Below, one piece after another: positions 1 to 23,398 of a stretch of DNA of 32,000 bases; position 1 is the first letter of the stretch; each line of letters opens with the position of its first letter. Made by a program: the position numbers and the translations under genes. This DNA is from Demequinaceae bacterium (GTDB taxonomy: Bacteria; Actinomycetota; Actinomycetes; Actinomycetales; Demequinaceae). The notes under the pieces are model-generated. The model worked only from the letters and a program-made list of their open reading frames with translations, was not told the origin of the DNA and searched no databases. Location of the stretch: positions 1,380,001 to 1,412,000 of the forward strand of contig OZ252279.1 in NCBI GenBank assembly GCA_965250005.1, in the 5' to 3' direction.

Positions 1-1685
1 CCAACAACCTTCTTGACCGCCTTGACGGAGCCATGGTTCCTCAGTCCAACGAAGGCTGCTTTCTGGACGAGCTTCGACACGGAGTCCTCGAACCGGACTC
101 CGTAGAAGGACTGTCCCGGGAATAGGTTGAACCCCACGGTGTAGACGATGATCGGAATCTCGAGCGCGTCAAGCGCCGCATCAGTCACATTCCACTGCCA
201 TCCGCTATTGCCATTCGGCGACGTGTCCGGCAAGAAAAGGCCGCCGCCACCTATCACGATCGCGTCGAGATTCTTGTTGGCCCAAAGTGCACGGTCCTCA
301 TCAAAGATCTGATGCGCATGGATGGAGGACCAGCGGGCGTCGGGAACCACCGTCTCGATTGATGTCCGCACTGCGATGGGGAGCATCACGTCGCCGAAGT
401 TGCCCTCGTCATCGACGTAGAAAGCTACGTGCCCTATCGCCGCGCCACTGCCTTCAGGCACGAGGCCATCGGTCAGGCGCGACTGCGCGATTCGCGAGAG
501 CACTAGCCGCGCCTTCCGCTGAGTCGGGTCGCGCGTGAGCGCTGACAGAGCAGCTTCTTCAGCAGCATCGTAATCTCGATAAACCCACTGCAAGTCGGCC
601 AGTCGCGAACGCGCTGCCGGGCCAATCTGACGCTGGTCCATTGCGAGAGTCAGCGCCAACTCCGCGTTAGCGCGCTTGGACAGCGCCTGTTGATTGGCGG
701 CAAGAGCCACAAACGACGATCCAGAAACCACTTGGGCTGTCGCGACGTGCAAACGAAGTGCCGTTTCCGCTGTTGCGAAATCGCCATCACGACCGTACCG
801 CCCCGATGCTGCACGCGGGTCGCCAAGATCCTCGTCGCGGAGCGATGCGAACGGAGCCGACATGTCCGCATAGAACTTCCGAATCCTCGATTTCTTGGGC
901 GAAATCTCGAGGTAGCGCCTCCAGAACAGCGCCGGCGCGATGTCGTACTCGTGCCACTCGTCTTCCGCGGCAGCGTAACCCGCCTCGCCGCCGCTCCATG
1001 GCTTGGTGGAGCCCGTAAAGTGCAAGATCCGGGTGTCTGCTGGCGGCTTCTGCCCCAGCTTAACCGCGCGCTTGACGAAGTTGTACTTCTTGTCGAGTTT
1101 CTCGTACTCGCCGTCGAGAACCGCAGACAACACGCCCTGGTCATGCCGCTCAAGATCGTATTCGCCTGACAGCCCGATCTCATCCATCTTCGCCACGAAC
1201 TCGTCGCTCATGGACCTACGGTCAAAGGTCATGACCCCGCTGTTGATCCGCCAGCCGCCGCGACTCTCAAAGTGCTGCGGCACCGCTCCAAAGGCCACAT
1301 CAGTGTCGACCAACTCTTTGATGTCGCCAAGGACCACCATGTCAACGTCGAGCGTGACCAAGCGGTCATAGTCGCGCACTCTGAACGCCTCAAGGATGTA
1401 GTACGCCTTCACAACGAGGTAATTTGTCAGATCACCCTTCGAGTACTTCGAGTACTGAGAGCCATCAACGCGCCGAAATACGAAGTTCGGGTACAGCAAC
1501 GAAATCCGAGCAATCGACTCGGGCTTCAAGTCGTCATAGAAGATGATGAAGTCGTGATCAACCCACGGATTCGTGAGCAATAGGCTCTTGATCAATACCT
1601 CGAACCCTTCGAGGTAGTTGTTGTCGACGTAGGACGCGAAGGCTACAGACGGCGACGATTCCGGTTGTGCGACAGCGGGCTTCAT
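1..1685 (-). CDS. Fusion protein: N-terminal glycosyltransferase family 8-like domain, helical/TPR-like linker, C-terminal polysaccharide pyruvyl transferase domain. The C-terminus runs off the left edge.
   Basis: Absent from the ORF track because it is open-ended. My translation of the minus strand from ATG 1685-1683 gives 561 stop-free codons down to position 3. N-terminal part: MKPAVAQPESSPSVAFASYVDNNYLEGFEVLIKSLL...LVTLDVDMVVLGDI...RINSGVMTF...ILHFTGSTKPW, which matches the GT8 DxD, NSG and HFxGxxKPW-type motifs. C-terminal part: ...GHVAFYVDDEGNFGDVMLPIAVR...LDAIVIGGGGLF..., which matches PS_pyruv_trans-type GNxGD and GGG motifs. It starts 16 nt downstream of the previous gene on the same strand. 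Confidence 0.75.
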   Translation of the reverse strand, partial: MKPAVAQPESSPSVAFASYVDNNYLEGFEVLIKSLLLTNPWVDHDFIIFYDDLKPESIARISLLYPNFVFRRVDGSQYSKYSKGDLTNYLVVKAYYILEAFRVRDYDRLVTLDVDMVVLGDIKELVDTDVAFGAVPQHFESRGGWRINSGVMTFDRRSMSDEFVAKMDEIGLSGEYDLERHDQGVLSAVLDGEYEKLDKKYNFVKRAVKLGQKPPADTRILHFTGSTKPWSGGEAGYAAAEDEWHEYDIAPALFWRRYLEISPKKSRIRKFYADMSAPFASLRDEDLGDPRAASGRYGRDGDFATAETALRLHVATAQVVSGSSFVALAANQQALSKRANAELALTLAMDQRQIGPAARSRLADLQWVYRDYDAAEEAALSALTRDPTQRKARLVLSRIAQSRLTDGLVPEGSGAAIGHVAFYVDDEGNFGDVMLPIAVRTSIETVVPDARWSSIHAHQIFDEDRALWANKNLDAIVIGGGGLFLPDTSPNGNSGWQWNVTDAALDALEIPIIVYTVGFNLFPGQSFYGVRFEDSVSKLVQKAAFVGLRNHGSVKAVKKVV

Positions 1686-1701
1686 TGCGTCTCCAAGGCC
1701 T

Positions 1702-3150
1702 CTAGCGAAGTGAAAGAACGAGGTCACTGGTTTTGGTCGCGTTCGCCATTACCCAGTCACGCTCGGCGTTGTAGTCGTGTGCGGTGGCTACGGGTAGATG
1801 CATGGCAGAGTCAAGCCGGAAGGCTCCGGACGTGTTGAAGTCGAACCCGATGAGATCGATCGCAGTGCTAACGTCCAGCAAGTCGACGAGCCGAAGCAAA
1901 TTGAACCCCGACGTCGGCACGTCCACAAGGCTCGAATCGCCTACGAGGTCCTTACCTCGCACGGGCCAGCGCAGGGTCGCATCACCGATGAAACCCTGCG
2001 CGTCCGAATCCAAATACTTGTTGACGGAAGCTCGCCATGCATTGAGATTGCCGCTAAACACTAGTCGGACGTCGACCGGTACGGACCAGTTGAAATTGTG
2101 CATGTGAATGGTCGCATGAAGTGACGTCTTTGATCCCGTATTCGGAGCGTCAATCTTGAATGAATTGAATCGCGCGACCACATCGTAGGAGTCGATCAGT
2201 TCGCCCGAACGCGATTCGGCAACGCGCTGGGAGTTCGCCACCAGGCAGACGGACTTTCCGGATAGGTACCTACGCAAACCCGCCGCGTCCATCGGCCGAA
2301 CCACATTCGCCGCCTCGCGCGTGACCTGAGGAAGAACCTCCAGTGGACGCGCCGCGACCGCCGCACGCGCAAGTTCCCGCGTCCGCACCGACGCATCCGC
2401 CCCAAATGCAAGCGCCTGCCTCAGCACCAAGTCTGCGGCAGCGGCGATCGAAGCGCGCCCAGTGAGCGGTTGCACACTGGTAACATCTGCGATCAGGTCT
2501 GCGTCGACCCGGGCCGATTCGACACCAGTGACCAGGTTCTGCAGCTTTCGATACAGCGCTGATACTGGGTCTCTTGACTTGTTTCCCTCGGCTTCTTGCA
2601 ACGCCTGTAGGAGCAACCCGTCCACAGCGAGCGCGGCCGTCGTCGATTCCGGCTCGTCAACACCGGTGAGTTGTGCAAACCGCGCTGCAGCGACGCGCGC
2701 AAGGTCCCGTCTATCGAGCGCGTCGTACGCTCGCGAGAGAATCTTCCATGCCGCTTTTGATTGCGGCCTGAGCTCAATGATCTGTTTCGCAAAGTCTTCA
2801 GCCAATTCTGGGCGCCCGACATTGAGTGCCGCTCGCGCAACGGAAAGCGCTCCATCAAGCGCGCGATTCTTGCCCAAATCAATCCAAGAATAGCGTCCGA
2901 GGGCATACCCAAGGCCATAATTGCTGTTCGCGCGCGCCGAGATCTCCGCAAGACTTCTCGTAGCGCGCACATATTTGACGCTGGAGGCGCGCCGATTATG
3001 TCCTTCGCGCTTGGCAACGTCGAGCGCGTCCGCGAGTGTCGACAAGAAGGAGAAATTGCGCCGGGAGTTACCCGGACCAAGGCGACGAAGGCCATGGGCC
3101 GCCCTTGACACACGCAGCACAATACGCTTCATATCAAGCAAAGTGAGCAT
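1702..3150 (-). CDS. Putative CMP-nonulosonate-dependent glycosyltransferase: about 290-aa helical/TPR-like N-terminal region plus a GT29/GT42-like sialyltransferase domain
   Basis: 482-aa ORF. Residues 302-329, CLVANSQRVAESRSGELIDSYDVVARFN, align with sialyl motif L (C-x-V-x-(G)N-S-x-x-L/V-x-x-S-x-x-G-x-x-I-D-x-x-D-x-V-x-R-x-N). Residues 412-436, PTSGFNLLRLVDLLDVSTAIDLIGF, resemble motif S (P-S/T-S/T-G ... I/V-x-x-x-G-F). Residues 458-463, HDYNAE, fit motif VS (H-x4-E). Start uncertain: the GGAG lies only 1 nt before ATG 3150, and in-frame TTG 3141 or ATG 3132 are alternatives. Confidence 0.7.
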   Translation of the reverse strand: MLTLLDMKRIVLRVSRAAHGLRRLGPGNSRRNFSFLSTLADALDVAKREGHNRRASSVKYVRATRSLAEISARANSNYGLGYALGRYSWIDLGKNRALDGALSVARAALNVGRPELAEDFAKQIIELRPQSKAAWKILSRAYDALDRRDLARVAAARFAQLTGVDEPESTTAALAVDGLLLQALQEAEGNKSRDPVSALYRKLQNLVTGVESARVDADLIADVTSVQPLTGRASIAAAADLVLRQALAFGADASVRTRELARAAVAARPLEVLPQVTREAANVVRPMDAAGLRRYLSGKSVCLVANSQRVAESRSGELIDSYDVVARFNSFKIDAPNTGSKTSLHATIHMHNFNWSVPVDVRLVFSGNLNAWRASVNKYLDSDAQGFIGDATLRWPVRGKDLVGDSSLVDVPTSGFNLLRLVDLLDVSTAIDLIGFDFNTSGAFRLDSAMHLPVATAHDYNAERDWVMANATKTSDLVLSLR

Positions 3151-3194
3151 ACTCCTCAGAGCGGTTTCGGGTGGAGGTTACGGCGGCCGATTCA

Positions 3195-4067
3195 TCAGCC
3201 ACCGATGCGGCGTAGCTTGCTCAGCGGGGCAAGCTCGCCCGGGAACACTCGCTTCACTCCGTCGCCGAGAGCGTCTTGAACAATGTGCACATCCCGGATC
3301 AGTGATGAGAAACCCTTCGGCTCAAGGGACGCCGCGTGGTCCGAGCCCCACATTGTGCGGTCAAGCGTCACATGCCGTTCAATTGCTACAGCGCCGAGAG
3401 TTGCGGCCGCAATGGAGATTTGAAGCCCCGCTTCATGTCCCGAGTATCCGGTCGGCAGGCCATAGCGCTCGCTAAGGGTCGGAATCATAAGCAGATTGGC
3501 CTCCTCCGGCGGAAGTGGGTACGTCGAAGTCGCGTGAAACAGAATCAGGTTTTCCTTGCCGAGAGTCTCAACGGCAGCGTCTATTTGCTCGATCGTCGAC
3601 ATTCCCGTTGACAGGATCACGGGCTTCCCCGTTTCCCGCAGTTTACTCAGCATCCCAAGATCGGTGACCGAGGCTGACGCAACCTTGTAGGCCACAACAT
3701 TCATCTTCTCGAGAAAATCTACAGACGGTTCGTCCCACGGAGAAGCGAACCAGTCAATACCCTTTTCGCGGCAGTAACTGTCGATCTCACGGTACTCGGC
3801 CTCTTCAAACTCGACCTTGTACCGATACTCCAGGTAGGTCATGGTTCCCCATGGAGTGTCACGTGGCGTGTCCTTCATGTGCTCTGGCGTTGATATCTCC
3901 GGCGTACGCTTCTGGAACTTGACGGCTTGCGCGCCTGCCTCAACTGCCACGTCAATGAGCTGCTTGGCGATCTCTAGCGAACCGTTGTGATTCAGGCCGA
4001 CTTCAGCGATGAAGTAAACTGGCTCGCCGACGCCAATCTCATTCGTGCCTATAGAAACCGTTGCCAT
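3195..4067 (-). CDS. neuB: NeuB-family nonulosonate (N-acetylneuraminate or Kdn, possibly 9-phosphate) synthase. Short form, apparently lacking the C-terminal SAF/antifreeze-like domain.
   Basis: 290-aa ORF. PVYFIAEVGLNHNGSLEIAKQLIDVAVEAGAQAVKFQKR ... VILSTGMST ... LFHATSTYP ... GYSGHE ... IERHVTLD is a typical NeuB/SpsE TIM-barrel signature. GGGGGA Shine-Dalgarno 8 nt upstream of the ATG. The protein ends about 55 aa earlier than the roughly 346-aa E. coli/Neisseria NeuB enzymes as I remember them. Confidence 0.9.
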   Translation of the reverse strand: MATVSIGTNEIGVGEPVYFIAEVGLNHNGSLEIAKQLIDVAVEAGAQAVKFQKRTPEISTPEHMKDTPRDTPWGTMTYLEYRYKVEFEEAEYREIDSYCREKGIDWFASPWDEPSVDFLEKMNVVAYKVASASVTDLGMLSKLRETGKPVILSTGMSTIEQIDAAVETLGKENLILFHATSTYPLPPEEANLLMIPTLSERYGLPTGYSGHEAGLQISIAAATLGAVAIERHVTLDRTMWGSDHAASLEPKGFSSLIRDVHIVQDALGDGVKRVFPGELAPLSKLRRIGG

Positions 4068-4163
4068 TGTGTACCTGTCCCCCTAGAACGCGCGCCTATC
4101 CGACCGGATGGCCCCCACCAAGGTACACGCGGGCAAGCAACAGCGCCACTTCTGGCTTCGCGC

Positions 4164-5327
4164 CTACCGGCTCCTGACCACGCGCCCAGAGAGTTCCCGA
4201 ATTGCGCCTTGTCCACCGCCTGCTGAAAGCACGATTCGCGCCGCGCGGAGGACCTCTGGCCGGGCGTCGGCAACGGCGACAGGCACGCCCACAGCCTCGA
4301 GACACTCGAGGTCGTTCACGTCGTTGCCCACATAGGCGATTTCCGCCAAGTTCAAACCCCTTTCGTGCGCCCACGCAGTCAACACCGGCAACTTCTCTTC
4401 GACGCCGTGGAGCACTTCGACACCAAGTTTCTTGGCGCGGGCAGCCACTACCGGGTTGATTTCGCTCGAGAGTATGAGCATCGGGACACCTGCACGGTGA
4501 AGCGACGCGATGCCCATCCCATCCGCTCTACTGACAGTGACCGCCTCGTGACCGTCTTGATCGACCCAGACTCGATCGTCAGTGTGAACGCCATCGAAGT
4601 CCATAACGACGGCTTCCACATCGATGGAATCTGGTGGCACGTCTACGGTGGACGCTAGAGACTGCGCGAGTTCAAGTTGTTCGGGCGTATCAATCTCCAA
4701 GCTTGTTCCTTCGGGAACAAGCACGGGAACGACGGTTCCGAAAAACCGGAACCTGGCGGCCATGAAGCCCGGAATCGCGAGCACGTAGAATGCGCCTGTT
4801 TCGCGATACTCCTGCTCACGGTCCTGGCGCCGCGGGCGCGCGTCCAGCGTGTGATTGACGGCGTCAAATCCCGAAGCAGTATGCTTCCACAGAAACGCGT
4901 CGCTCGGCGTCACCGCCATCGCGACGTCGGCGCTTCCCGAAGAAACCGCGTCCACCGCCTCGGCGACGGACTCGGGTGCCACAAACGGCGATGTTGCCTG
5001 GAGAAAGACTAGTACGTCGAACTTCTCGCCGCGGTCTGCCAAAGCCTCGATCGCATGCAGCAATGCGTCCTCGGAGCGCGCGGTATCGCTTGCGAGCTCC
5101 GCCGGACGATCCAAGACCGTCGCCCCAAAATCCACGGCGGCTTGAGCGATTTCCGGATCGTCAGTAGAAACGCAAACTGACTGAATCGCAGACACATCCT
5201 GTGCGAGTCGAATCGCCCGCCCGATCAATGGGACACCCCCCACTCGCTGCAGATTCTTGCGAGCGATTCCCTTAGACCCGCCGCGCGCCGGTATGACTGC
5301 CAGCACCCTGCTCTCACCGTTCGCCAT
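4164..5327 (-). CDS. neuA: Bifunctional CMP-nonulosonate synthetase (NeuA-like cytidylyltransferase) fused to a C-terminal HAD-IIIA KdsC-like phosphatase domain
   Basis: 387-aa ORF. The N-terminus, VLAVIPARGGSKGIARKNL...LQATSPF, is the CTP_transf_3 signature. The C-terminal roughly 160 aa contain VVMDFDGVHTDD (HAD motif I, DxDG), SS.. and YVGNDVNDL (HAD motif IV). GGAGGGAG Shine-Dalgarno 6 nt upstream. The start overlaps the upstream gene by 14 nt. Confidence 0.9.
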   Translation of the reverse strand: MANGESRVLAVIPARGGSKGIARKNLQRVGGVPLIGRAIRLAQDVSAIQSVCVSTDDPEIAQAAVDFGATVLDRPAELASDTARSEDALLHAIEALADRGEKFDVLVFLQATSPFVAPESVAEAVDAVSSGSADVAMAVTPSDAFLWKHTASGFDAVNHTLDARPRRQDREQEYRETGAFYVLAIPGFMAARFRFFGTVVPVLVPEGTSLEIDTPEQLELAQSLASTVDVPPDSIDVEAVVMDFDGVHTDDRVWVDQDGHEAVTVSRADGMGIASLHRAGVPMLILSSEINPVVAARAKKLGVEVLHGVEEKLPVLTAWAHERGLNLAEIAYVGNDVNDLECLEAVGVPVAVADARPEVLRAARIVLSAGGGQGAIRELSGRVVRSR

Positions 5328-6315
5328 CGCCTGCTCCCTCCATCGAAGCCAAATCCCCGAGCACAGCGCGCAACTCTGGGCGTCCTTCCGGAACCCACCA
5401 CTCGATTGGCACGGATGACATAGAAACCTGCGCTGACGGCAACACTCCAGACAGCACTCGCACCGCGCTGGTCGGAAGAGTGTAAATCTCTTTCACCGTC
5501 GCGCGACCAGCTAGGAAAAGTTCTACAGGCACCCGCGAGCGAATGACTCTGACGCCCGGAATCGCGGCCACGGCTTCGATTGTCTCGGCGTCCTCGCGCC
5601 GGTGAGGGTGGTACAGCGCACTACCGCGCCTCGAAATATCGCGCACCCAATCGAGATACGGTTCTGCGCGAATCTGGCCCGTGGCCACTAGGGATGTTCC
5701 AAGGATGACTCGCGCACTCTCAATTCGCACGCCGCCGAGACTCACGTCCGCCAGCCATCTGTGGCTGTTTTTCATGACTTCGTATCCCAACGCGCTTAGT
5801 CCAGTCACGTGTTGCGTCTCTTCGTAGACCGTAAAAATTGCTACGCGTCCCTTTCGCGCGACGCGCGAAATCTTTTGTCTAAGCCGCAGTCCGAGCAACT
5901 TCATCACAGGCGACTCGCGCTTGGACATTCGACTCAATCTTTTGTGGCGGTTCGCCAAGGTCGACGCAAGGTGCAACGTCGATGTGCCGTCGTCAACGAT
6001 GACCAGATCACGTGAACTACGAAGTGCGAAGTACGCGCGGAACTGTCCCGAATAGATATCGCCAACCAGTAGCTTCGCGCGCGCGCTGGGGGGCAGCCCG
6101 AAGATTGTACGCAGCGGTGGCGCAAATTCGACGCCCACGGGCAACTGGAGCTCTATAGCGGCAATGGTGGCCTCAAGTTGCCGCACTGCGTCGCGGGGAT
6201 AGATTCGCAGCGGCTCGCCCGTCTCTGCCGCGAACTCGACGGCATTGAGGATTTGCAGCGGAGACTCGACCCATGCGGCACGCACGGTTGGCGGCTTCGG
6301 CTCTGCGGCGGACAC
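5314..6315 (-). CDS. Putative bacterial-type (GT-B; GT38/52/80-like) sialyl/nonulosonyl-transferase
   Basis: The track ORF is 5314-6408. The likely true start is GTG 6315-6313, 2 nt after the TAG stop of the upstream ATPase gene, giving 333 aa. It contains LVIVDDGTSTL (D/E-D/E-G motif, nt 5986-5994) and ALYHPHRRED (HP motif, nt 5605-5610). These are the two motifs reported as conserved in bacterial sialyltransferases. There is also an N-terminal SPLQILNAVEF Rossmann-like start. Confidence 0.6.
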   Translation of the reverse strand: MSAAEPKPPTVRAAWVESPLQILNAVEFAAETGEPLRIYPRDAVRQLEATIAAIELQLPVGVEFAPPLRTIFGLPPSARAKLLVGDIYSGQFRAYFALRSSRDLVIVDDGTSTLHLASTLANRHKRLSRMSKRESPVMKLLGLRLRQKISRVARKGRVAIFTVYEETQHVTGLSALGYEVMKNSHRWLADVSLGGVRIESARVILGTSLVATGQIRAEPYLDWVRDISRRGSALYHPHRREDAETIEAVAAIPGVRVIRSRVPVELFLAGRATVKEIYTLPTSAVRVLSGVLPSAQVSMSSVPIEWWVPEGRPELRAVLGDLASMEGAGDGER

Positions 6316-6317
6316 GG

Positions 6318-7073
6318 CTACGTCGCCTTTTCGTAGGCGACACAGACCTGCTTCGGGTCGCCATCCATCTTGATTCGGCCACGATCCAACCAAATCACCC
6401 GAGAGCACGTCTCCCGAATTGTCCTCATCGAGTGGCTTACCAGGAATACTGTGCCGGCGTTCTCGCGCATCTCGCGGATCCGAGCCGCGCTCCGTTCTCG
6501 AAAATCCTTGTCTCCGACGGCCAGCGCCTCATCGATCAACAGAATCTCGTGATCTTGAGCCACTGCAATCGCAAATCGTAGCCGCGCAGACATCCCGGAA
6601 CTGTAGGTCTTCATCTGCATGTCCGCATACTCGGAAATCCCAGAGAACTCCAGAATGCGATCAAAATTTGTGTCAACTTCACGCGGGCTCATTCCCATCG
6701 CCAGGCAACCGAGACGGACGTTCTTCTCCCCGGACACGTCGCCAAGGAGAGCGGCATTGATTCCGAGCAACACCGGGCGCGCGGCACCCCTTACGGCTCC
6801 ACTAGTGGCCGGCGTTACTCCGGCGAGCGCGCGCATCAAGGTGGATTTTCCTGAGCCGTTACGCCCGATGATCCCAACGCTCTCTTCCTCGCGAACCTCA
6901 AAGGAAACGCCGCGGAGAGCGTGAACCTCGCGTATTCCGCGCGAAGCGCGGAAGAATTGGCGGCCTCGCGTGACGCGTCGACCCGTCGAGTATGCGCGGT
7001 ACGTGACGTGTACGTCATCTGCGACGATTGCCAAAGGCGTTCGCTCGGCCGATTCATTCCTATTCGCGCCCAT
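6318..7073 (-). CDS. ABC transporter ATP-binding protein, polysaccharide/teichoic-acid export type (TagH/KpsT/Wzt-like)
   Basis: Walker A GRNGSGKSTL, signature-like YSSGMSARLRFAIA, Walker B LLIDEALAVGD. Start trimmed to ATG 7073 (MGANRNESAERTPLAIV...), which overlaps the upstream permease stop by 14 nt. The track's longer N-terminus (to 7172) is Arg-rich and lies inside the permease gene. Confidence 0.9.
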   Translation of the reverse strand: MGANRNESAERTPLAIVADDVHVTYRAYSTGRRVTRGRQFFRASRGIREVHALRGVSFEVREEESVGIIGRNGSGKSTLMRALAGVTPATSGAVRGAARPVLLGINAALLGDVSGEKNVRLGCLAMGMSPREVDTNFDRILEFSGISEYADMQMKTYSSGMSARLRFAIAVAQDHEILLIDEALAVGDKDFRERSAARIREMRENAGTVFLVSHSMRTIRETCSRVIWLDRGRIKMDGDPKQVCVAYEKAT

Positions 7074-7917
7074 ACAGCTCTTCACCTCGCCAGAAGAAAA
7101 CCACGCCAGCCCCCGCGAGGACCACCGCTGCCGTGCCACATACCGCCCACGCGACGGGGGACGGGTCGGCACCTGTGATCAGTTGCGCGCGCAAGAGCTG
7201 GATGAAACTAGCGATCGGGTTGAGCCGCGCAATCTCCAACATTTCGGGACGATCTGCGAGAACCGCCTCCAGAGAATAGAAGATTCCACTCGAATAGAAA
7301 GCGACACGGTTAATCAATGGGATCAGTTGAGTGATGTCCCTCATGTGCACCGCAATTCGCGCAAAGACCAAACCGAGCCCTGCATTGAATATCGCCATCA
7401 AGAGCACAACGGGGATTACTACTAGCCATTTCCAAGTGATCGGCTCGCCAAACGAGACGACGATGACAAGCATGACCGCAAGTGCTGGGATGAATAGCAG
7501 CACCTGTTCAACCACAACAGCCAAAGGAAGCAGCACACGCGGGAAAGCAAGGCTGTGAACTAGCCCCTTGTTGCCGATCACCGATTTGGCGGTGGCTGTA
7601 AATGAGCGCGCATAGAACTGGTACAGGAACATGCCCACGATGAGAAAAGGGATGAAGTTTGCCGGGCGATACTCGCTCGGGAGAATGATTCCAAAGATGG
7701 TCCCAAAGATTGCTGCGAGGAGAATCGGCTGTATCACGACCCAACCCAAGCCCAAGCGATTCTCGCTCATTTGCGCGGATACTCGCGCGCGAGCGAGTTC
7801 GAACAAGAACGGGCGTCTCTGCCACGTCTCGGCAAAATATGCGCTCAGCGACTGACGCGCGCCTATTCTCGGCAACATCGCTGCCTCTTCGTCCAAACTA
7901 TGCGACATGCTCGTCAA
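7060..7917 (-). CDS. ABC-2 type polysaccharide/teichoic-acid export permease (TagG/KpsM/Wzm-like)
   Basis: 285-aa ORF with about 6 hydrophobic segments and typical ABC-2 features (...RRPFLFELARARVSAQMSENRLGLGWVVIQPIL...). The start at 7917 is TTG. ATG at 7908 is an alternative. Confidence 0.88.
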   Translation of the reverse strand: MTSMSHSLDEEAAMLPRIGARQSLSAYFAETWQRRPFLFELARARVSAQMSENRLGLGWVVIQPILLAAIFGTIFGIILPSEYRPANFIPFLIVGMFLYQFYARSFTATAKSVIGNKGLVHSLAFPRVLLPLAVVVEQVLLFIPALAVMLVIVVSFGEPITWKWLVVIPVVLLMAIFNAGLGLVFARIAVHMRDITQLIPLINRVAFYSSGIFYSLEAVLADRPEMLEIARLNPIASFIQLLRAQLITGADPSPVAWAVCGTAAVVLAGAGVVFFWRGEELYGRE

Positions 7918-7961
7918 TTCGTTCGACGTTCATCGATTCCCATTGCACACAGCAGATTCTC

Positions 7962-8225
7962 TCACGAATCAAGGCACCCATCTGCTAGCAACGCGTCCTG
8001 CTGTTCCGAGGCGGGTCGTCTGGTTTGAGCGGATATAGGCAACAGCATGGAACCAACCCTTCGCGCCCGCGCTGCTGTCACGCTAACCGCGAGCCACAAG
8101 TCGGTGCTGCGCACAGCCAGCACAAAGAAGGCCAACAAGGTCAAGGCGAGACCGAGGGGTAGCAGCGAGATTGAGGCAGCCGGCAACTGCACGGCGCGCG
8201 CGAGCGCAACGTTCACGACGTCCAT
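7962..8225 (-). CDS. Hypothetical small membrane protein (87 aa)
   Basis: ATG preceded by GGGGGAAGAAGAA (Shine-Dalgarno-like). A TAGATT -10-like hexamer ends 36 nt upstream of the ATG. One clear hydrophobic segment (LLPLGLALTLLAFFVLAV). No recognisable family. The Arg-rich C-terminus lowers confidence. Confidence 0.35.
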   Translation of the reverse strand: MDVVNVALARAVQLPAASISLLPLGLALTLLAFFVLAVRSTDLWLAVSVTAARARRVGSMLLPISAQTRRPASEQQDALLADGCLDS

Positions 8226-8259
8226 TTCTTCTTCCCCCAGTCAGCCCGCCTAGTACCCG

Positions 8260-8268
8260 GAATCTATC
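8260..8268 (-). promoter_or_regulatory. Promoter-like motif GATAGATTC (-10 hexamer TAGATT at 8266-8261 on the minus strand)
   Basis: The plus strand reads gaatctatc. The identical 9-mer recurs at 8915-8923 in the same position relative to another small membrane ORF. TAGATT fits the actinobacterial TANNNT -10 consensus. Confidence 0.35.
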
Positions 8269-8512
8269 GGGGAATACTCGCAACTGCGAGAGCAACATCC
8301 CTCATATCTTTGGCGCAAAATACTCTCACGCCGTCACAGTCAAAGGACCGCGCCAAAGTCGAGGCTGGCGCAGGCGCATTGAGACTATATGCCACGCAGG
8401 GGCATCAGAAACCCCAGGAGCCGGACGACTCAAACCAAGAGGCCGCGCGCTCGTGAGTATCCTTCATGCGGCACCGGCAAATCCTGCACCGCCTCGCAGG
8501 TCCCGACTGGTT

Positions 8513-8542
8513 CCGCCAATGAAGGCTACTTCGAATTGGCGG
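8513..8542 (-). terminator. Candidate hairpin terminator downstream of the 8555-8872 gene
   Basis: ccgccaat (8513-8520) pairs with attggcgg (8535-8542): an 8-bp stem with a 14-nt loop, 13 nt past the stop codon. There is no U-tract, so this is weak. Confidence 0.25.
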
Positions 8543-8554
8543 ACATTCCGGGCT

Positions 8555-8872
8555 CTACGCCTGCTCTTGCTCCAGTTGACCGAGCGTGGGCTCCACCGGC
8601 TCTAGCTCGATGCCCTTCTCCTCTAGCAGCGCGAGCGCACGGTCGCGTTGGTCGAGCGCCGGCCACTTGACGATGGCGAACACCAAAAACAGCAAGGGTC
8701 CGATCACTGGAACAAGCACCGCGATGACGCCCAGCCAGTGTGAATACCCTGCTTTGCGAGCCACCAACACTGCGGAGACCAGCAAGATGATTGTGAACAG
8801 GACGCTCAGTAGGGTGATCCAGCCGAGCCAATCGCTCACTAACTCCGACCAAGTGATGTTGTTGTCGTCCAT
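8555..8872 (-). CDS. Hypothetical small membrane protein (105 aa, 2 predicted TM segments, acidic C-terminal tail)
   Basis: GAGAGGAAG Shine-Dalgarno about 6 nt upstream of the ATG. Hydrophobic segments WLGWITLLSVLFTIILLVSAVLVA and WLGVIAVLVPVIGPLLFLVFAIV. A -10-like TAGATT ends 44 nt upstream of the ATG. Confidence 0.6.
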   Translation of the reverse strand: MDDNNITWSELVSDWLGWITLLSVLFTIILLVSAVLVARKAGYSHWLGVIAVLVPVIGPLLFLVFAIVKWPALDQRDRALALLEEKGIELEPVEPTLGQLEQEQA

Positions 8873-8911
8873 GCCGTCTTCCTCTCAGCGCCAGCACCCG
8901 CTGGCTGCTAC

Positions 8912-9991
8912 CTAGAATCTATCCGGGTACGTGGCTAGGCGCGCAAGTAGTTGCTCATTCTCTTCGCGCGAGCCGATGCTGATGCGGACACCCTCACCAC
9001 CAAACGGACGCACAAGAATGGCCGGGTCTGACGCCGCGAGGTGCTCGGCCGCGCGAGTCGACGCGTCAGCAACCGGCAGCCACACGAAGTTTCCTTGCGC
9101 CTCCGGAACCGACCAACGATCAGCCAGAAGCGCACTGCGCACTCGGTCGCGCTCGCCCACGACTTCGGCTACTCGTTCCAAGACCCTCTGCTCAACACTC
9201 AGCGCCGCGAGCGCCGCGGCTTGCGCCACCGCAGATACCGAGAACGGCGTGACGCACGCGCGGACCGGTGCTATCAGCTGCTCCGCGCCGAGGGCGTAGC
9301 CCACACGCAAACCCGCGAGGCCGTAGGCCTTGGAGAAGGTTCGCGTGACCACCACATTCGCGTGCGCGTCGATCAGGGCACGGCCATCAATGCTCTTGGG
9401 GTCGCGGACGAATTCGACGTACGCCTCGTCTACGACCACCAGGACCCGCTCAGGGATGGCCTTCATCAACTCGGCGAATTCGGCACTTCGGATCGCGGGT
9501 CCCGTGGGGTTGTTTGGGGTGCACACGAACACGACTCGAGTGCGGTCCGTGACAGCGGCGGCCATTGCCGAAAGGTCGTGGCGCGCTCCTTCGGCAAGCG
9601 GGACTGTAACCGGGACGGCACCGGCGACGGCAGTGATAATTGGGTACGCCTCGAACGAGCGCCAAGGAAAGACCACCTCGTCGCCCGCTTCGCAGTAAGC
9701 CTGCAGGATGTGGCCCAACACTGCGACCGACCCTGCGCTCACCGCTATTTGCGCAGGCGCGACCGCGTGCCGCGCGGCAAGCGCTTCCGTCAATTCAACG
9801 CTGAACATGTCTGCATACCGGTTCGACGTTGCCGCGGCTGCGGCCGCTGCCGCCGAAATCTCCGCGAACGGCGCAAAGGGCGTCTCGTTCGAGGAGAGTT
9901 TGATCGGCAACCGTCCGCCTTGCGGATTGCGGGCGCCCGGCACGTACTTAGGCATCGCCGCAATTGTTTTGCGTGGCTGCGGCTGAGTCAT
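8912..9991 (-). CDS. Class I/II PLP-dependent aminotransferase, histidinol-phosphate/aromatic aminotransferase family
   Basis: Trimmed from the 531-aa track ORF to ATG 9991 (MTQPQPRKTIAAMPKYVPG...), giving 359 aa. Motifs: LSSNETPF, CTPNNPTG, VVVDEAYVEF, and RTFSKAYGLAGLRVGY (PLP lysine). The 172 upstream codons are Arg/Pro/Thr-rich and antisense to the 10020-10418 gene. Confidence 0.85.
   Translation of the reverse strand: MTQPQPRKTIAAMPKYVPGARNPQGGRLPIKLSSNETPFAPFAEISAAAAAAAATSNRYADMFSVELTEALAARHAVAPAQIAVSAGSVAVLGHILQAYCEAGDEVVFPWRSFEAYPIITAVAGAVPVTVPLAEGARHDLSAMAAAVTDRTRVVFVCTPNNPTGPAIRSAEFAELMKAIPERVLVVVDEAYVEFVRDPKSIDGRALIDAHANVVVTRTFSKAYGLAGLRVGYALGAEQLIAPVRACVTPFSVSAVAQAAALAALSVEQRVLERVAEVVGERDRVRSALLADRWSVPEAQGNFVWLPVADASTRAAEHLAASDPAILVRPFGGEGVRISIGSREENEQLLARLATYPDRF
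8915..8923 (-). promoter_or_regulatory. Promoter-like motif GATAGATTC (-10 hexamer TAGATT at 8921-8916 on the minus strand)
   Basis: Same 9-mer as at 8260-8268. It overlaps the last codons of the upstream aminotransferase gene. Confidence 0.35.
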
Positions 9992-10019
9992 AGGGCAAGC
10001 ATGCCACCGACGTGGAACA

Positions 10020-10418
10020 ATGGCGGGCATGAGATTCACTATGCGATTCATCGCCACAGCGCTAGGCGTGTGGCTAGTGACGGCCCTCCCGCTCGACGTC
10101 CTGGTCGAGGGCGGTGACGGCTCGGGCTTCCAGCGCGTCTTGGTGTTCCTTGGTGTTGCCGGCATCCTGACGCTGGTTAACGGCCTAGTCAAGCCTGTGG
10201 TCAATTTCTTCACCCTTCCCGTTCGCGTCCTCACGCTCGGATTGTTCTCCTTGGTTGTTAGCTGGGCCATGCTCACTCTCACGGCGTGGATCAGTTCCAA
10301 GTTCAGTTTCGGCACGCTCGAGTTGGGCGGGTTCTGGAAAACGCTCTTGGCCGCGCTCGTCATCGCGATCATCACCGGGATCCTGGGCAAAGTTGCACCC
10401 AAGCGCGGCAGCAAGTAG
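10020..10418 (+). CDS. DUF360 / 'phage holin 4-2' family integral membrane protein (a housekeeping actinobacterial family, not evidence of a prophage)
   Basis: 132 aa. ILTLVNGLVKPVVNFFTLPVRVLTLGLFSLVVSWAML matches my memory of the family core (LvN..vrPil..ltlPl.ilTLGLF.lv.N). The start could instead be ATG 10029 or 10041. Confidence 0.7.
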   Translation: MAGMRFTMRFIATALGVWLVTALPLDVLVEGGDGSGFQRVLVFLGVAGILTLVNGLVKPVVNFFTLPVRVLTLGLFSLVVSWAMLTLTAWISSKFSFGTLELGGFWKTLLAALVIAIITGILGKVAPKRGSK

Positions 10419-10421
10419 CCG

Positions 10422-11849
10422 CTAGCCGCTCGTTGCCGCAACATACGAGGGCAGCGGGCTACCGTCGACGGCGGGACCAGGCGTGGCATCTGCTCCGCGC
10501 TCCACACGGAAAGTCGTCACCGTCGCCGTGGTTCCTGGCTCCGCGAAGAACTCCTCCGTTCGCCTCCGCCACTGGGCGAGAGACGAGTCTGTCGACCCGT
10601 CCACGAGCGAGCCCGTACGCACGTAAAACTCCGTCTGGTGCGCGGACACACTCCCGGTCGCAGCGTCCTGTTCTTGACCAACCGATGACTCCCCTAGCGA
10701 GCGTTCAACGGTGATGCGGTCGGGCGTGTCTGGGTTCTTGGCCCCGTCGAGCCCTGGCACGAAGTCCTCGCGATGCTCCAGATGCAGAACCTGCACTCCA
10801 GAGGGGGTGTCGATGCGCCCGCCGGGAGTGCCAGCGGTGACGACTGCGCTCAGAGAGTACATTGACGTGAACGCAGGTTGAGCCGCCAAGGCGAGAGCGG
10901 TCAGGCCTCCTTGGCTATGACCCACAAGCAGGACCGGCTCGTCTGGCCCTACCCCTAGCGCATCCATTGCTGAGATCACAGCGAGTGCCGGGTCCCCCAT
11001 CGCCGCCTGCACCTGTTGGCCATTTGCGAGATTGTCGAACACGTTCTCTCCCCCCACGTCGAACAACTCTTGCGTCCCCGGAATCTCCACGATCCACGAG
11101 ATCGAGCCATCGGCGTGCACGAGCCGTTCGACTGCGAGCGACCCAGGCTCGGCCCCGTTCCGAGGCTCGAGGGCGCCGACACGGGAGATCAACTGGCCTA
11201 GGCCGGCGGGTGCCGTGGTTTCCGCGACTGAAGTGGCCGAGATCGCGATACCGAACGGGCTGTGAACGACGTTTCCGATAGTTGCCATGGCCTCGGTTAG
11301 CGACTCTGTGGCTGCCGCGAATACGACGTCCGGGACTCCAAGCATCGCCTCGGTCAGGTCACGTCCAGGAGTGACTCGCACGTTGGGCACCGCCTCGGTG
11401 GGCACCCTTCCCAGGATGGTGATCTCGAAGAATGCGACAGCCGTCCCGCGCGCAAAGGATGCGAGCCCAACGGCAAGATCCCACCCGTACGCCGCGCTCA
11501 GCGCCGCGATGCTCGCGCCGCGTTCAGCCTCCACATATGCTCGCGCGGTTGCCGCGAGACGGCTAGCGGAATCATTCAAGTTTGCTGCGATGGGACCCGC
11601 TCCGCCTCGCGCGACCTCCGCTACTAGCAGGGCCCGTTGTGCCGCGTGTTTCAGCTCTTCTGTCTGCGGCCTGGTACCGGCGGACGCCCACTCCAATGCC
11701 ACGCGAGCCATTTGCAATTGATTGGCGACTTTTTCCATCTCTGCCGCCGCATCCACGAGGCCTTCGGAAGCTCGCCAAATGTCGGTGACCCGCGCTGCTG
11801 TTCCCGCGAACCCACCGGAAATTTCGAGCCAGTCCTCACTCAAGCGCAC
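10422..11849 (-). CDS. Alpha/beta hydrolase (lipase/esterase-like, GHSQGG nucleophile elbow) with an N-terminal helical domain of about 130 aa
   Basis: 475 aa. SWIVEIPGTQ...VLLVGHSQGGLTALALA is a class-3-lipase/DUF1023-like core. The N-terminal region is predicted helical, with no signal peptide or TM segment visible. The start overlaps the upstream small ORF by 10 nt. Confidence 0.75.
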   Translation of the reverse strand: MRLSEDWLEISGGFAGTAARVTDIWRASEGLVDAAAEMEKVANQLQMARVALEWASAGTRPQTEELKHAAQRALLVAEVARGGAGPIAANLNDSASRLAATARAYVEAERGASIAALSAAYGWDLAVGLASFARGTAVAFFEITILGRVPTEAVPNVRVTPGRDLTEAMLGVPDVVFAAATESLTEAMATIGNVVHSPFGIAISATSVAETTAPAGLGQLISRVGALEPRNGAEPGSLAVERLVHADGSISWIVEIPGTQELFDVGGENVFDNLANGQQVQAAMGDPALAVISAMDALGVGPDEPVLLVGHSQGGLTALALAAQPAFTSMYSLSAVVTAGTPGGRIDTPSGVQVLHLEHREDFVPGLDGAKNPDTPDRITVERSLGESSVGQEQDAATGSVSAHQTEFYVRTGSLVDGSTDSSLAQWRRRTEEFFAEPGTTATVTTFRVERGADATPGPAVDGSPLPSYVAATSG

Positions 11850-22342: not shown

Positions 22343-23398
22343 GTGAATCCTCCTGCTCATGATCTCCGGATCGAAACCATCGACGACGAGGCGTTCGTCG
22401 GCCACGTACACGCCTCCGGCCAATCCGTTCCGATCGAGCAGGCGCCCGTCTGGGATGCGTACGACGCCGCTGTCTCCGTGCGTACACCTTGGCGTCGTCT
22501 AGTCGCCCGGGATGCCGCAGCCGACGCCGGCGCCGCGCCAATCGCCGTCATCGCTCTCACAAAGTATGAGGGGCACGGGTTCGAGTTCCTGTGGGCCAAG
22601 CACGGCCCAGTCTGGCTTACCGAGCCGTCGGCCGCGCTCGAGAAACTCGCTCACCGCGCGCTCTCAGCGTACGTCGAAGCCGAGGCCCCCGAGGCCGTGT
22701 TCGTGCGCCTGCACGCTCGCCACCAAGCTGGCCACCTGAGTCCACTTCTGCAAACTGTTACCTACGACCGCACCGTCGTCATTGACCTCGCTCCGGACGC
22801 CGACTCGTACCTCGCGGGGCTGGCCAAAAAGTTCCGCTACACCGTGCGGCAGGCCCTCAAACACGAGGCCGTAGCGGTCACCGACGAGTCAACAATGACC
22901 ACGGAGCAGTTCGGCGAACTCTACGCGATCTACCTGGAAACCGCGGATCGGGACGGCTTCGGAATCTACAGCGCGGACGCGTACTTTGAGATGATCCAGA
23001 CGCTTGCGCCCCACGCGCGGGTCTTCGTGGCTCGGCGCACCGACACGGGAGACGACGGCGCAGAGCCCGGACGCGCGACGGCCTGGGCAATCATCACGCT
23101 CTACGACGGTCACGCCCAGTACTACTACGCCGCCGGGAACGCAGAAGCTCGCGCAACCGACGCAACAGTCCGGCTGCTATGGGACGCTCTCGCGCAACTG
23201 CGCAGCGAAGGCGCTCGCACATTCGACATGATGGGCGTAGATTCGCCTCTCGCACCGACGCTCGCGGGGGTGGGACTTTTCAAACGCAAGTGGGGTGCAG
23301 AGTCCGCCGTGGATTCTAGTTGGGATCTGCCCATCAAACGCGCAAAGTACCGAGGGCTGCGAATCGCGCTGCGCCTCAAAAAACTGTTCGGCCGCTAG
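22343..23398 (+). CDS. FemAB-family peptidoglycan interpeptide-bridge aminoacyltransferase-like protein
   Basis: 351 aa. General FemAB/GNAT-duplication pattern (...FLWAKHGPVW..., LAKKFRYTVRQALKH, YYYAAGN..., GVGLFKRKWG). It lies next to a class A PBP. The family call is from memory of such motifs, not a search. Confidence 0.7.
   Translation: MNPPAHDLRIETIDDEAFVGHVHASGQSVPIEQAPVWDAYDAAVSVRTPWRRLVARDAAADAGAAPIAVIALTKYEGHGFEFLWAKHGPVWLTEPSAALEKLAHRALSAYVEAEAPEAVFVRLHARHQAGHLSPLLQTVTYDRTVVIDLAPDADSYLAGLAKKFRYTVRQALKHEAVAVTDESTMTTEQFGELYAIYLETADRDGFGIYSADAYFEMIQTLAPHARVFVARRTDTGDDGAEPGRATAWAIITLYDGHAQYYYAAGNAEARATDATVRLLWDALAQLRSEGARTFDMMGVDSPLAPTLAGVGLFKRKWGAESAVDSSWDLPIKRAKYRGLRIALRLKKLFGR

Follow-up and report, generated by a model that had tools for sequence, protein, structure and literature searches.

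A predicted operon for a Kdn-containing, ABC-exported surface glycopolymer in a Demequinaceae bacterium

What kind of polymer is built by an operon that joins nonulosonic acid synthesis, two unrelated types of sialyltransferase-like protein and an exporter, and how does it relate to known systems? The question is raised by seven genes (g1 to g7) at the left end of a 32,000-nucleotide stretch of DNA from a Demequinaceae bacterium (assembly GCA_965250005.1, contig OZ252279.1, positions 1,380,001 to 1,412,000), referred to here as the window. The operon is probably a self-contained route to a phosphate-free, pyruvylated anionic surface glycopolymer of the teichulosonic-acid type that contains 3-deoxy-D-glycero-D-galacto-non-2-ulosonic acid (Kdn) and is exported by an ATP-binding cassette (ABC) transporter. 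It is a compact, exporter-linked relative of a known, poorly dissected Streptomyces teichulosonic-acid locus and not a new kind of system.

Gene organization of the operon

The genes g1 to g7 are seven consecutive open reading frames (ORFs) on the minus strand of window positions 1-7917. In the order of transcription these are g1 (7917..7060, 285 residues from a TTG at 7917, with an alternative ATG at 7908), g2 (7073..6318, 251 residues), g3 (6315..5314, 333 residues), g4 (5327..4164), which fuses a NeuA domain to a haloacid dehalogenase (HAD) domain, g5 (4067..3195, 290 residues), g6 (3150..1702), which fuses tetratricopeptide repeats (TPRs) to a domain resembling glycosyltransferase (GT) family 29, and g7 (1685..<1), which is cut by the left window edge and has 561 visible residues. 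All domain coordinates given below are on the same strand. The junctions were read base by base. The TAG stop of g1 (7062-7060) and the ATG of g2 (7073-7071) give an overlap of 14 nucleotides, the TAG stop of g2 (6320-6318) is followed after two nucleotides by the GTG of g3 (6315-6313), and the TGA stop of g3 (5316-5314) and the ATG of g4 (5327-5325) give a second 14-nucleotide overlap. The intergenic gaps are 96 nucleotides between g4 and g5 (4068-4163), 44 between g5 and g6 (3151-3194) and 16 between g6 and g7 (1686-1701). This reading agrees throughout with the gene coordinates, overlaps and gaps of an original prediction made from the sequence alone. GGAG-like ribosome-binding sites lie upstream of g2 and g7, and the products of g3, g4, g5 and g6 have identical starts to public gene calls from one NCBI/ENA contig. 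The G+C content of the operon is 0.55-0.61 per kb (window 1-8000) compared with 0.60-0.68 for most of 9000-32000. Low G+C is often seen in variable surface-polysaccharide loci or acquired DNA.

Related loci were collected by a scan for the g6 family in one genome per species. Relatives encoded in 337 genomic stretches were confirmed, 80 loci were retained, and tblastn served to compare the seven window proteins with these 80. The full seven-gene order occurs in Demequina oxidasica (L003), Demequina iriomotensis and two contigs from one metagenome, and the closest full-synteny relative is the contig L081. The strong homologues found for all seven products and the recurrence of the gene order in relatives indicate that the ORFs are not chance occurrences.

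Predicted synthesis and activation of Kdn

The g5 protein is a predicted Kdn-9-phosphate (Kdn-9-P) synthase. It matches Pfam NeuB (PF03102) over profile positions 1-241 of 241 with an E-value of 1.8e-81 and 273.6 bits against a cut-off of 22.1. The protein stops at residue 290 and therefore lacks the SAF/antifreeze-like domain. Equivalents of Neisseria meningitidis NeuB E25, H215, E234 and H236 are present, including the metal-binding histidines. The g5 protein is 78-80% identical to its orthologues in Demequina and L081 and ~60% identical to the protein encoded at the SCO4881 position in Streptomyces. Ser133 is conserved in 35/35 orthologues and lies in a KVASAS[LV]TD motif (window 3669-3686, g5 residues 128-133) that, judged by sequence, marks a distinct SAF-less NeuB subfamily.

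The amino-terminal domain of g4 (4638..5327) is a predicted CMP-Kdn synthetase that matches Pfam CTP_transf_3 (6.3e-25). Its Protein Data Bank (PDB) matches are CMP-N-acetylneuraminic acid (CMP-Neu5Ac) synthetases and the Kdn-specific PpNeuA. Arg194 of g4 (within 4737-4754) is located 13 residues after a conserved tyrosine and aligns without gaps to PpNeuA Arg196. The arginine is found in 40/40 homologues from related loci, whereas the N. meningitidis and Vibrio CMP-Neu5Ac synthetases have a phenylalanine in this column. Arg196 gates the C5 pocket of PpNeuA and the R196L substitution switches the preference of the enzyme from Kdn to Neu5Ac; the gate arginine is also reported in the CMP-sialic acid synthetases of the Kdn-only Brevibacterium sp., Streptomyces albus and Klebsiella ozaenae (PMC12934254).

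The carboxy-terminal domain of g4 (4164..4622) is a KdsC/YrbI-type (C0 HAD) domain and a predicted Kdn-9-P phosphatase. The NCBIfam models for KDN-9-P phosphatase (NF058599; 3.2e-27, 95.6 bits against a cut-off of 180) and KdsC (3e-27, 95.4 bits against a cut-off of 208) both match below their cut-offs, and the PDB matches are 3mmz (closest, 1.2e-47) and BT1713 of Bacteroides thetaiotaomicron (3e81, 3.3e-24). Both aspartates of the nucleophile motif are present in DFDGV (4587-4601). Glu289 and Lys300, which are conserved in homologues, occupy the positions of BT1713 Glu56 and Lys67, which we take to be substrate-site residues; the YrbI/KdsC-type phosphatase 3mn1 has arginine and serine at these positions. 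The Kdn pathway of B. thetaiotaomicron likewise runs in three steps through a phosphorylated intermediate, and its phosphatase BT1713, to which g4 aligns with retention of Glu56 and Lys67, is of the C0 HAD type. BT1714 of that pathway is reportedly a Kdn-9-P synthase, and the role of Glu56 and Lys67 is said to have been described by Wang et al. in 2008 and Lu et al. in 2009. The two systems differ in the fusion of the g4 phosphatase to the synthetase, in its GND instead of GDD, and in their unrelated downstream transferases and export functions.

The nonulosonate is most likely Kdn because of the Arg194 gate, the residues at the HAD substrate positions and the lack of amino-sugar genes. Genes for a uridine diphosphate N-acetylglucosamine 2-epimerase, a dehydratase, a DegT-type aminotransferase or an N-acetyltransferase were found neither in the operon nor in the syntenic loci L003, L009, L081 and L083. 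The fused phosphatase implies a phosphorylated nonulosonate and thus synthesis from a 6-phosphosugar. Mannose-6-phosphate as the precursor requires no extra genes. The original prediction had left the sugar as a Kdn- or sialic-type nonulosonate, and Arg194, the HAD residues and the gene content now favor Kdn over Neu5Ac, legionaminic acid and pseudaminic acid.

Candidate Kdn transferases and the GT8-pyruvyltransferase

The carboxy-terminal domain of g6 (1702..2298) resembles the eukaryote-type GT29 sialyltransferases in its fold and in its sialylmotif-like columns. The AlphaFold model of g6 has a mean predicted local distance difference test score (pLDDT) of 82.7 and of ~90 in this domain. Foldseek matches the domain to ST6Gal1 (E-value 1.5e-4, target-normalised template modelling (TM) score 0.52), ST3Gal1, ST8Sia3 and ST6GalNAc2, and the g6 family profile also reaches ST3Gal1 and ST6Gal1 by sequence. 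The score of g6 itself against Pfam GT29 (PF00777) is 21.8 bits, under the gathering cut-off of 23, and 25/26 members of the g6 family match PF00777 at E<=0.01 (best 1.5e-6). The definitions of the sialylmotifs reportedly go back to Datta & Paulson and to Jeanneau et al. An L-like motif (CLVANS...IDxYDVVxRFN) is located at 2161-2247, an S-like motif (PTSGF) at 1903-1917 and a VS-like HxxxxE at 1762-1779. Columns that show no or almost no variation are C302-x-x-A-N-S, I/V-D-x-x-D-x-V-x-R-F-N, P412-T-S-G and H458-x4-E463. The sialyltransferase-like character attributed to g6 by the original prediction is thus upheld by fold, motifs and the PF00777 matches of its family, and not by its own Pfam score. 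The domain shares the fold and the L-, S- and VS-like sialylmotifs with eukaryotic ST6Gal1, ST3Gal1 and ST8Sia3, but g6 is a cytoplasmic bacterial protein with an amino-terminal TPR domain and a predicted CMP-Kdn donor, and it lacks the motif-S cysteine of the conserved disulfide. On the basis of the model, this domain is a putative Kdn transferase. A search of the accessible literature found no characterised actinobacterial GT29 or Kdn transferase. The amino-terminal domain of g6 (2299..3150) is modeled as all-helical over residues 1-284 and consists of TPR-like repeats; the family profile matches consensus TPR proteins over residues ~96-170, and several members have TPR Pfam matches.

The g3 protein lies outside the known sequence families. 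Neither g3 nor 39 members of its family have a Pfam match, NCBIfam likewise returned none, and the family profile retrieved nothing below an E-value of 0.25 from the PDB sequences. The AlphaFold model (pLDDT 93.5) has a GT-B fold with two Rossmann-like domains, and in the PDB it is closest in fold to GT80 sialyltransferases and to a GT38 polysialyltransferase. The top matches 2zwi, PmST1 and 5wcn (E-values 2.5e-6 to 1e-5, TM scores ~0.5) are interleaved with generic GT-B uridine diphosphate-dependent glycosyltransferases. The invariant residues of the family are DDG at 108-110 (5986-5994) and H238-R-R-E241 (5593-5607). Bacterial sialyltransferases carry a D/E-D/E-G motif and an HP motif, with a distance of 125 residues between the two in NmB-polyST (Freiberger et al. 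2007, PMC2169525). In g3 the invariant His238 is 129 residues after DDG within P-H-R-R-E and is followed by arginine, not proline. The predicted GT-B fold and the invariant DDG agree with the earlier description of g3 as sialyltransferase-like, which finds no family match by sequence. Based on its model, g3 is a putative CMP-Kdn-dependent Kdn transferase. Profile comparisons rejected g3 as a diverged DUF6716 protein (probability 0.5%) and as a diverged copy of a PF07388-positive, polysialyltransferase-like Streptomyces protein (hhalign probability 0.2%).

The g7 protein begins with a GT8 retaining hexosyltransferase domain (906..1685; Pfam Glyco_transf_8 1.1e-20, 74.8 bits against a cut-off of 24.3) that carries the motifs DVD at 1341-1349 (residues 113-115) and HFTGSTKPW at 996-1022 (residues 222-230). 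The central helical, TPR-like linker (411..905) has a weak NCBIfam TPR match at residues 296-400, and its conservation among the closest homologues is 35-57%. The carboxy-terminal polysaccharide pyruvyltransferase domain (1..410) is cut by the window edge and lacks ~215-245 residues. Only profile positions 1-135 of 280 of PS_pyruv_trans (PF04230) are visible, and they match at 1.7e-07 with 31.9 bits against 25.3. Full-length homologues of g7 have 774-808 residues and span the whole profile (positions 1-276 in D. oxidasica).

The predicted ABC exporter

The g1 protein is an ABC-2 type permease (Pfam ABC2_membrane 6.6e-16) whose top NCBIfam match is the galactan exporter permease Wzm/RfbD (8e-27, below cut-off). 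It is 54% identical to the protein encoded by the leading gene of the corresponding operon in D. oxidasica and L081. The g2 protein is a TagH/Wzt-like ABC ATPase (Pfam ABC_tran 2e-19) with a Walker A sequence GRNGSGKS at 6843-6866 and NCBIfam matches to TagH models (2.6e-51 and 8.7e-48) and galactan Wzt (2.9e-44), all below the equivalog cut-offs. The overlapping genes with both Pfam domains form a predicted exporter pair that resembles TagGH and the O-antigen and galactan Wzm-Wzt systems in its two-gene composition of permease and ATPase and in its top NCBIfam matches. The pair differs from these systems in that the g2 ATPase is without the carboxy-terminal carbohydrate-binding extension and in that the TagH, Wzt, Wzm and KpsM scores fall far below the equivalog cut-offs; the predicted cargo differs from that of TagGH in being a Kdn heteropolymer, not a polyol phosphate. 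A two-gene ABC-2 exporter implies that the glycan is completely assembled on a lipid carrier in the cytoplasm before export.

Pfam detects the families named for g1, g2, g4, g5 and g7 in the original prediction: NeuB over its full profile in g5, CTP_transf_3 with a HAD domain that has both nucleophile-motif aspartates in g4, Glyco_transf_8 and, over the visible part, PS_pyruv_trans in g7, and ABC2_membrane and ABC_tran in g1 and g2. The subtype of the ABC-2 exporter is not fixed by the scores.

Conservation of the locus

The g6 and g7 genes are adjacent and co-oriented in 78/80 genome loci, and the two proteins are therefore expected to function together. Isoptericola, which we take to belong to the same family as Promicromonospora, carries the g6/g7 pair (L071). 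Apart from the window operon, the Demequina genomes and the two metagenome contigs are the sole loci compared in which the exporter leads the operon. The metagenome contigs also retain the upstream neighbors of the window operon (purB, a hydrolase and an aminotransferase).

Many Streptomyces have NeuA-HAD, NeuB and g3-like genes ~7 kb downstream of g6/g7. The annotated complete Streptomyces locus contains, in order, a methyltransferase gene (minus strand), g6, g7, a PF07388 gene (minus strand), a GT2 gene (minus strand), DUF6716, NeuA-HAD, NeuB and a g3-like gene. The order from GT2 to the g3-like gene matches the published description of SCO4878-SCO4881 in Streptomyces coelicolor, where SCO4878 is a divergent GgaB-like GT, SCO4879 is NeuE-like, SCO4880 is NeuA and SCO4881 is NeuB (PMC3479208). 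Profile alignment of g3 with the product of the gene that follows NeuB in Streptomyces (the SCO4882 position) gives an hhalign probability of 100% and an E-value of 4e-43. By these comparisons, the S. coelicolor homologues are SCO4882 for g3, SCO4880 for g4 and SCO4881 for g5. SCO4873-4882 is cited as the teichulosonic-acid locus (Ostash et al. 2014) and is PhoP-activated (Allenby et al. 2012, PMC3479208). The comparison with Streptomyces loci suggested by the original prediction thus finds homologues of g3, g4 and g5 co-located and linked to teichulosonic acid. Its statement that the genetics of these polymers are poorly defined needs amendment, as the three homologues lie in a published cluster; the locus is nonetheless little dissected.

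The window operon shares with the S. coelicolor cluster a homologous NeuA-HAD (~45-55%), a SAF-less NeuB (60%), a member of the g3 family (26-34% identity) and, as its predicted product, a phosphate-free Kdn wall polymer. The differences lie in export and in accessory genes. None of the Streptomyces loci examined has an ABC exporter within 10 kb, whereas the window operon starts with one, and the visible operon lacks the DUF6716, GT2 (SCO4878), GtrA and bactoprenol-glucosyltransferase genes of the S. coelicolor cluster. The cluster as described in PMC3479208 is without the g6/g7 pair, which adjoins the cluster in many other Streptomyces.

No homologue of DUF6716 ("putative glycosyltransferase", the SCO4879 position) occurs in the 32-kb window, yet this gene is located beside the g6/g7 or the NeuA/NeuB genes in most related loci (L003, L004-L009, L023, L033, L081 and most Streptomyces loci). 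In L081, an Acyl_transf_3-SGNH O-acyltransferase gene and then the DUF6716 gene come after g7, both on its strand. The second full-synteny metagenome contig also has a further same-strand gene after g7, and the O-acyltransferase is whole in L081 only. Because DUF6716 is missing and relatives carry same-strand genes after g7, the locus probably extends to the left of the window, as the original prediction had proposed. The flank beyond g7 is variable because D. oxidasica has a second nonulosonate gene set at this position (L003 13621-19232, minus strand, convergent on g7), which encodes a 541-residue NeuB-domain protein with a ~280-residue amino-terminal extension, a 370-residue protein without a Pfam match, a 251-residue CTP_transf_3 protein and a 691-residue TPR protein.

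Two related loci have other contexts. An ENA metagenome contig (L082 1-9000) has g6/g7 beside genes for PhoD, two phytase-like proteins and a glycerophosphodiester phosphodiesterase, all of which are phosphate-scavenging functions, and this setting echoes the PhoP control of the Streptomyces cluster. In Streptomyces albidocamelliae (L070 13627-15162, minus strand) a PF07388 (alpha-2,8-polysialyltransferase family) gene directly follows g7. Judged by its family, the encoded protein would be a third sialyltransferase-like type in such clusters, and it has no counterpart in the window.

Surroundings of the operon

The remaining window genes are those of an ordinary actinobacterial chromosome and include purB, an MprF-like protein, DnaB, SSB, PBP1A and a FemAB-like protein. 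The window purB is 76.5% identical to that of D. oxidasica. The spacer between the aminotransferase gene and g1 (7918-8911) is ~1 kb long compared with ~170-210 nucleotides in the two closest syntenic contigs. It contains two small minus-strand ORFs at 8555-8872 (105 residues, hydrophobic) and 7962-8225 (87 residues), neither of which has a homologue in any fetched locus, and a repeat search of the spacer found nothing notable. The aminotransferase was considered as a legionaminic or pseudaminic acid gene and rejected, as it is of class I/II and not DegT and is 1 kb away. It also belongs to a purB-side neighborhood conserved in relatives. Its longest ORF (8912-10507, 531 residues) has a ~200-residue amino-terminal extension that overlaps the upstream hydrolase ORF (10422-11849); the homologues have only 364-380 residues, so the true start is probably internal.

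Further cell-envelope genes lie nearby: 14519-16990 encodes an 823-residue protein that combines an MprF-type LPG_synthase_TM domain with a long amino-terminal part lacking annotation, 22343-25665 holds the FemAB-like protein beside PBP1A, and 28026-29522 encodes a 498-residue pentapeptide-repeat protein. Matches to a PHO box of the Streptomyces type (two GTTCACC units) number 4 compared with 2.8 expected, and none lies upstream of the operon; a sigma-70 scan gave 1 promoter-like site compared with 2.3 expected, none upstream of g1. Terminator-like matches sit within genes, and an Rfam scan of the window found no RNA family.

Discussion

From the gene structure, family and fold assignments, diagnostic residues and synteny we infer the substrates, the order of the transferases, the lipid carrier, the wall linkage and the structure of the polymer. 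The pathway would start with the condensation of phosphoenolpyruvate (PEP) and mannose-6-phosphate to Kdn-9-P by g5. The HAD domain of g4 would convert Kdn-9-P to Kdn, and the NeuA domain would use CTP to form CMP-Kdn. Two unrelated CMP-sugar-type transferases, g3 and g6, would add Kdn, one of them probably in initiation or branching and the other in elongation of the chain; g3, as a second Kdn transferase, may have the former role. The g6 and g7 proteins both have TPR-like regions and are the best candidates for a polymerase that alternates Kdn and alpha-hexose and has built-in pyruvylation. In this polymerase, the GT8 domain of g7 would add the alpha-linked hexose that alternates with Kdn, and the pyruvyltransferase would add a pyruvate ketal from PEP. 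The g1/g2 exporter would flip the finished lipid-linked chain outward, where it would presumably be ligated to peptidoglycan by a LytR-CpsA-Psr (LCP) enzyme encoded elsewhere. The sequence of making, activating, transferring, decorating and exporting the sugar that was outlined in the original prediction lost none of its functional assignments in the profile, structure and synteny tests, which support almost all of the roles. Its naming of a teichulosonic acid is supported by gene homology to the Streptomyces cluster; the attachment to the cell wall is the part that we infer.

A polymer with much of the predicted chemistry is described for Promicromonospora citrea 665T, whose wall contains ->6)-a-Glc-(1->6)-a-Glc3S-(1->4)-a-7,9Pyr-Kdn-(2-> (Dmitrenok et al. 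2017, as relayed in PMC6801904). The alpha-hexose, the alpha-Kdn and the 7,9-pyruvate ketal of this structure, as relayed there, fit a GT8 domain, a Kdn transferase and a pyruvyltransferase. The polymer differs in its sulfate, which has no counterpart in the window operon, the relayed account assigns no genes to it, and the window organism is not a Promicromonospora. The P. citrea polymer shows that the predicted chemistry exists in related Micrococcales. The neu-kps loci of Escherichia coli K1 and N. meningitidis, which encode polysialic acid capsules, resemble the window operon in combining NeuB and NeuA with an ABC-2 exporter and with a GT-B sialyltransferase that carries a D/E-D/E-G motif, a role that is putative for g3. 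The operon differs from them in that NeuC, KpsC/S, KpsD/E and NeuD/E are missing, NeuB has no SAF domain, NeuA has the Kdn-type arginine and a phosphatase domain, GT29-like and GT8-pyruvyltransferase genes are added, and the host is Gram-positive.

Several observations weigh against a Kdn wall polymer made by this operon. The 32-kb window encodes neither a TagO/WecA-type priming transferase nor an LCP ligase. Ser133 of g5 stands at the position of N. meningitidis NeuB Glu134, the proposed catalytic residue. The g5 scores place it in no NeuB, PseI or LegI equivalog, being below the cut-offs for NeuB_NnaB (TIGR03569, 259 bits against 399.65) and PseI (TIGR03586, 214 against 340.25), and synthases of legionaminic and pseudaminic acid rank, with similar scores, among its closest relatives of solved structure. 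Motif IV of the g4 HAD domain is GNDVND (residues 334-339, 4311-4328) and not GDDxxD; this places an asparagine at the position of BT1713 Asp103, which is presumably a Mg ligand. GNDVND is conserved in 35/36 g4 homologues and in PDB 3mmz. In vertebrate CMP-sialic acid synthetase, the homologous carboxy-terminal domain is an inactive phosphatase. The dephosphorylation step assigned to g4 is therefore not secure. ABC export is not general to the family because the Streptomyces loci have no exporter within 10 kb, and D. oxidasica carries its second nonulosonate gene set just past g7, at a place that corresponds to the unseen left end of the window.

The last of these points bears on the identity of the sugar. 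A 5-acylamino sugar (Neu5Ac, legionaminic or pseudaminic acid) would require precursor genes to the left of the window or elsewhere, and the unseen left flank leaves room for them. The best NCBIfam match of g4 is PseF (1.4e-37) and g5 matches NeuB_NnaB and PseI, all below cut-offs, with SpsE and PseI among the PDB neighbors of g5. Against such a sugar, an N-acetyl group at C5 is predicted to collide with the Arg194 gatekeeper, and a sugar-acid phosphatase domain is fused to NeuA, whereas to our knowledge the bacterial routes to Neu5Ac, legionaminic acid and pseudaminic acid involve no phosphorylated nonulosonate intermediate. The epimerase, dehydratase and aminotransferase genes are missing from all four syntenic loci, two of which show an O-acyltransferase gene after g7, plus DUF6716 in L081, and not legionaminic or pseudaminic acid genes; the upstream aminotransferase, with its class I/II type, 1-kb distance and conserved purB-side neighborhood, does not supply the missing step. 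We consider a 5-acylamino sugar improbable and Kdn the better assignment.

The fate of a Kdn polymer is a separate matter. The same chain could remain a loose capsule or exopolysaccharide, or a membrane glycolipid or lipoglycan, and not be linked to peptidoglycan. Such an outcome is unlikely, although it would fit the absence of LCP ligase and TagO-type primer genes from the window, the low G+C of the operon relative to its surroundings, and the service of ABC-2 exporters of the g1/g2 type to capsules (a weak NCBIfam match to KpsM at 2.4e-06) and to mycobacterial galactan. LCP and primer genes commonly lie apart from loci of this kind, the Kdn heteropolymers described from actinomycetes are cell-wall polymers, and the homologues in Streptomyces are cited as genes for wall teichulosonic acid. 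The transferases might instead glycosylate surface-layer, pilus or flagellar proteins, with the TPRs of g6 and g7 as substrate adaptors as in O-linked N-acetylglucosamine transferase (OGT). The TPR regions do have fold and profile matches to OGT-type TPRs, and nonulosonates decorate flagellins and surface layers in other bacteria. However, the operon is led by an ABC-2 polysaccharide exporter, a GT8-pyruvyltransferase fusion typically points to the decoration of a polymer, the loci share no conserved gene for a target protein and the homologues in Streptomyces are linked to a polymer of the wall, all of which make protein glycosylation very improbable. A peptidoglycan-linked Kdn polymer is the reading preferred here.

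Teichulosonic acids are major wall polymers in many actinomycetes, and only S. coelicolor SCO4873-4882 has been tied to them, with no transferase, polymerase or export step assigned. Two of the enzyme groups found here are of wider interest, namely the TPR-fused bacterial GT29-like proteins and a GT-B family outside Pfam and NCBIfam, and there is demand in glycan synthesis for Kdn transferases and CMP-Kdn-specific enzymes as tools. We put forward the tentative proposal, somewhat doubtful as a whole, that g6 is a working bacterial GT29-fold enzyme that uses CMP-Kdn, that g6 and g7 form a two-protein pyruvylating polymerase through their TPRs, and that g3 founds a new Kdn-transferase family. If all of this were true, the operon would be a full genetic blueprint, from synthesis to ABC export, for pyruvylated teichulosonic acids, which so far are known only as chemical structures. 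The operon and its counterparts in Demequina and the metagenome bring together, in one co-transcribed unit, a pathway to the nucleotide sugar, an exporter, a pyruvyltransferase and three candidate transferases, and through them the enzymes that polymerize and export Kdn polymers become directly testable.

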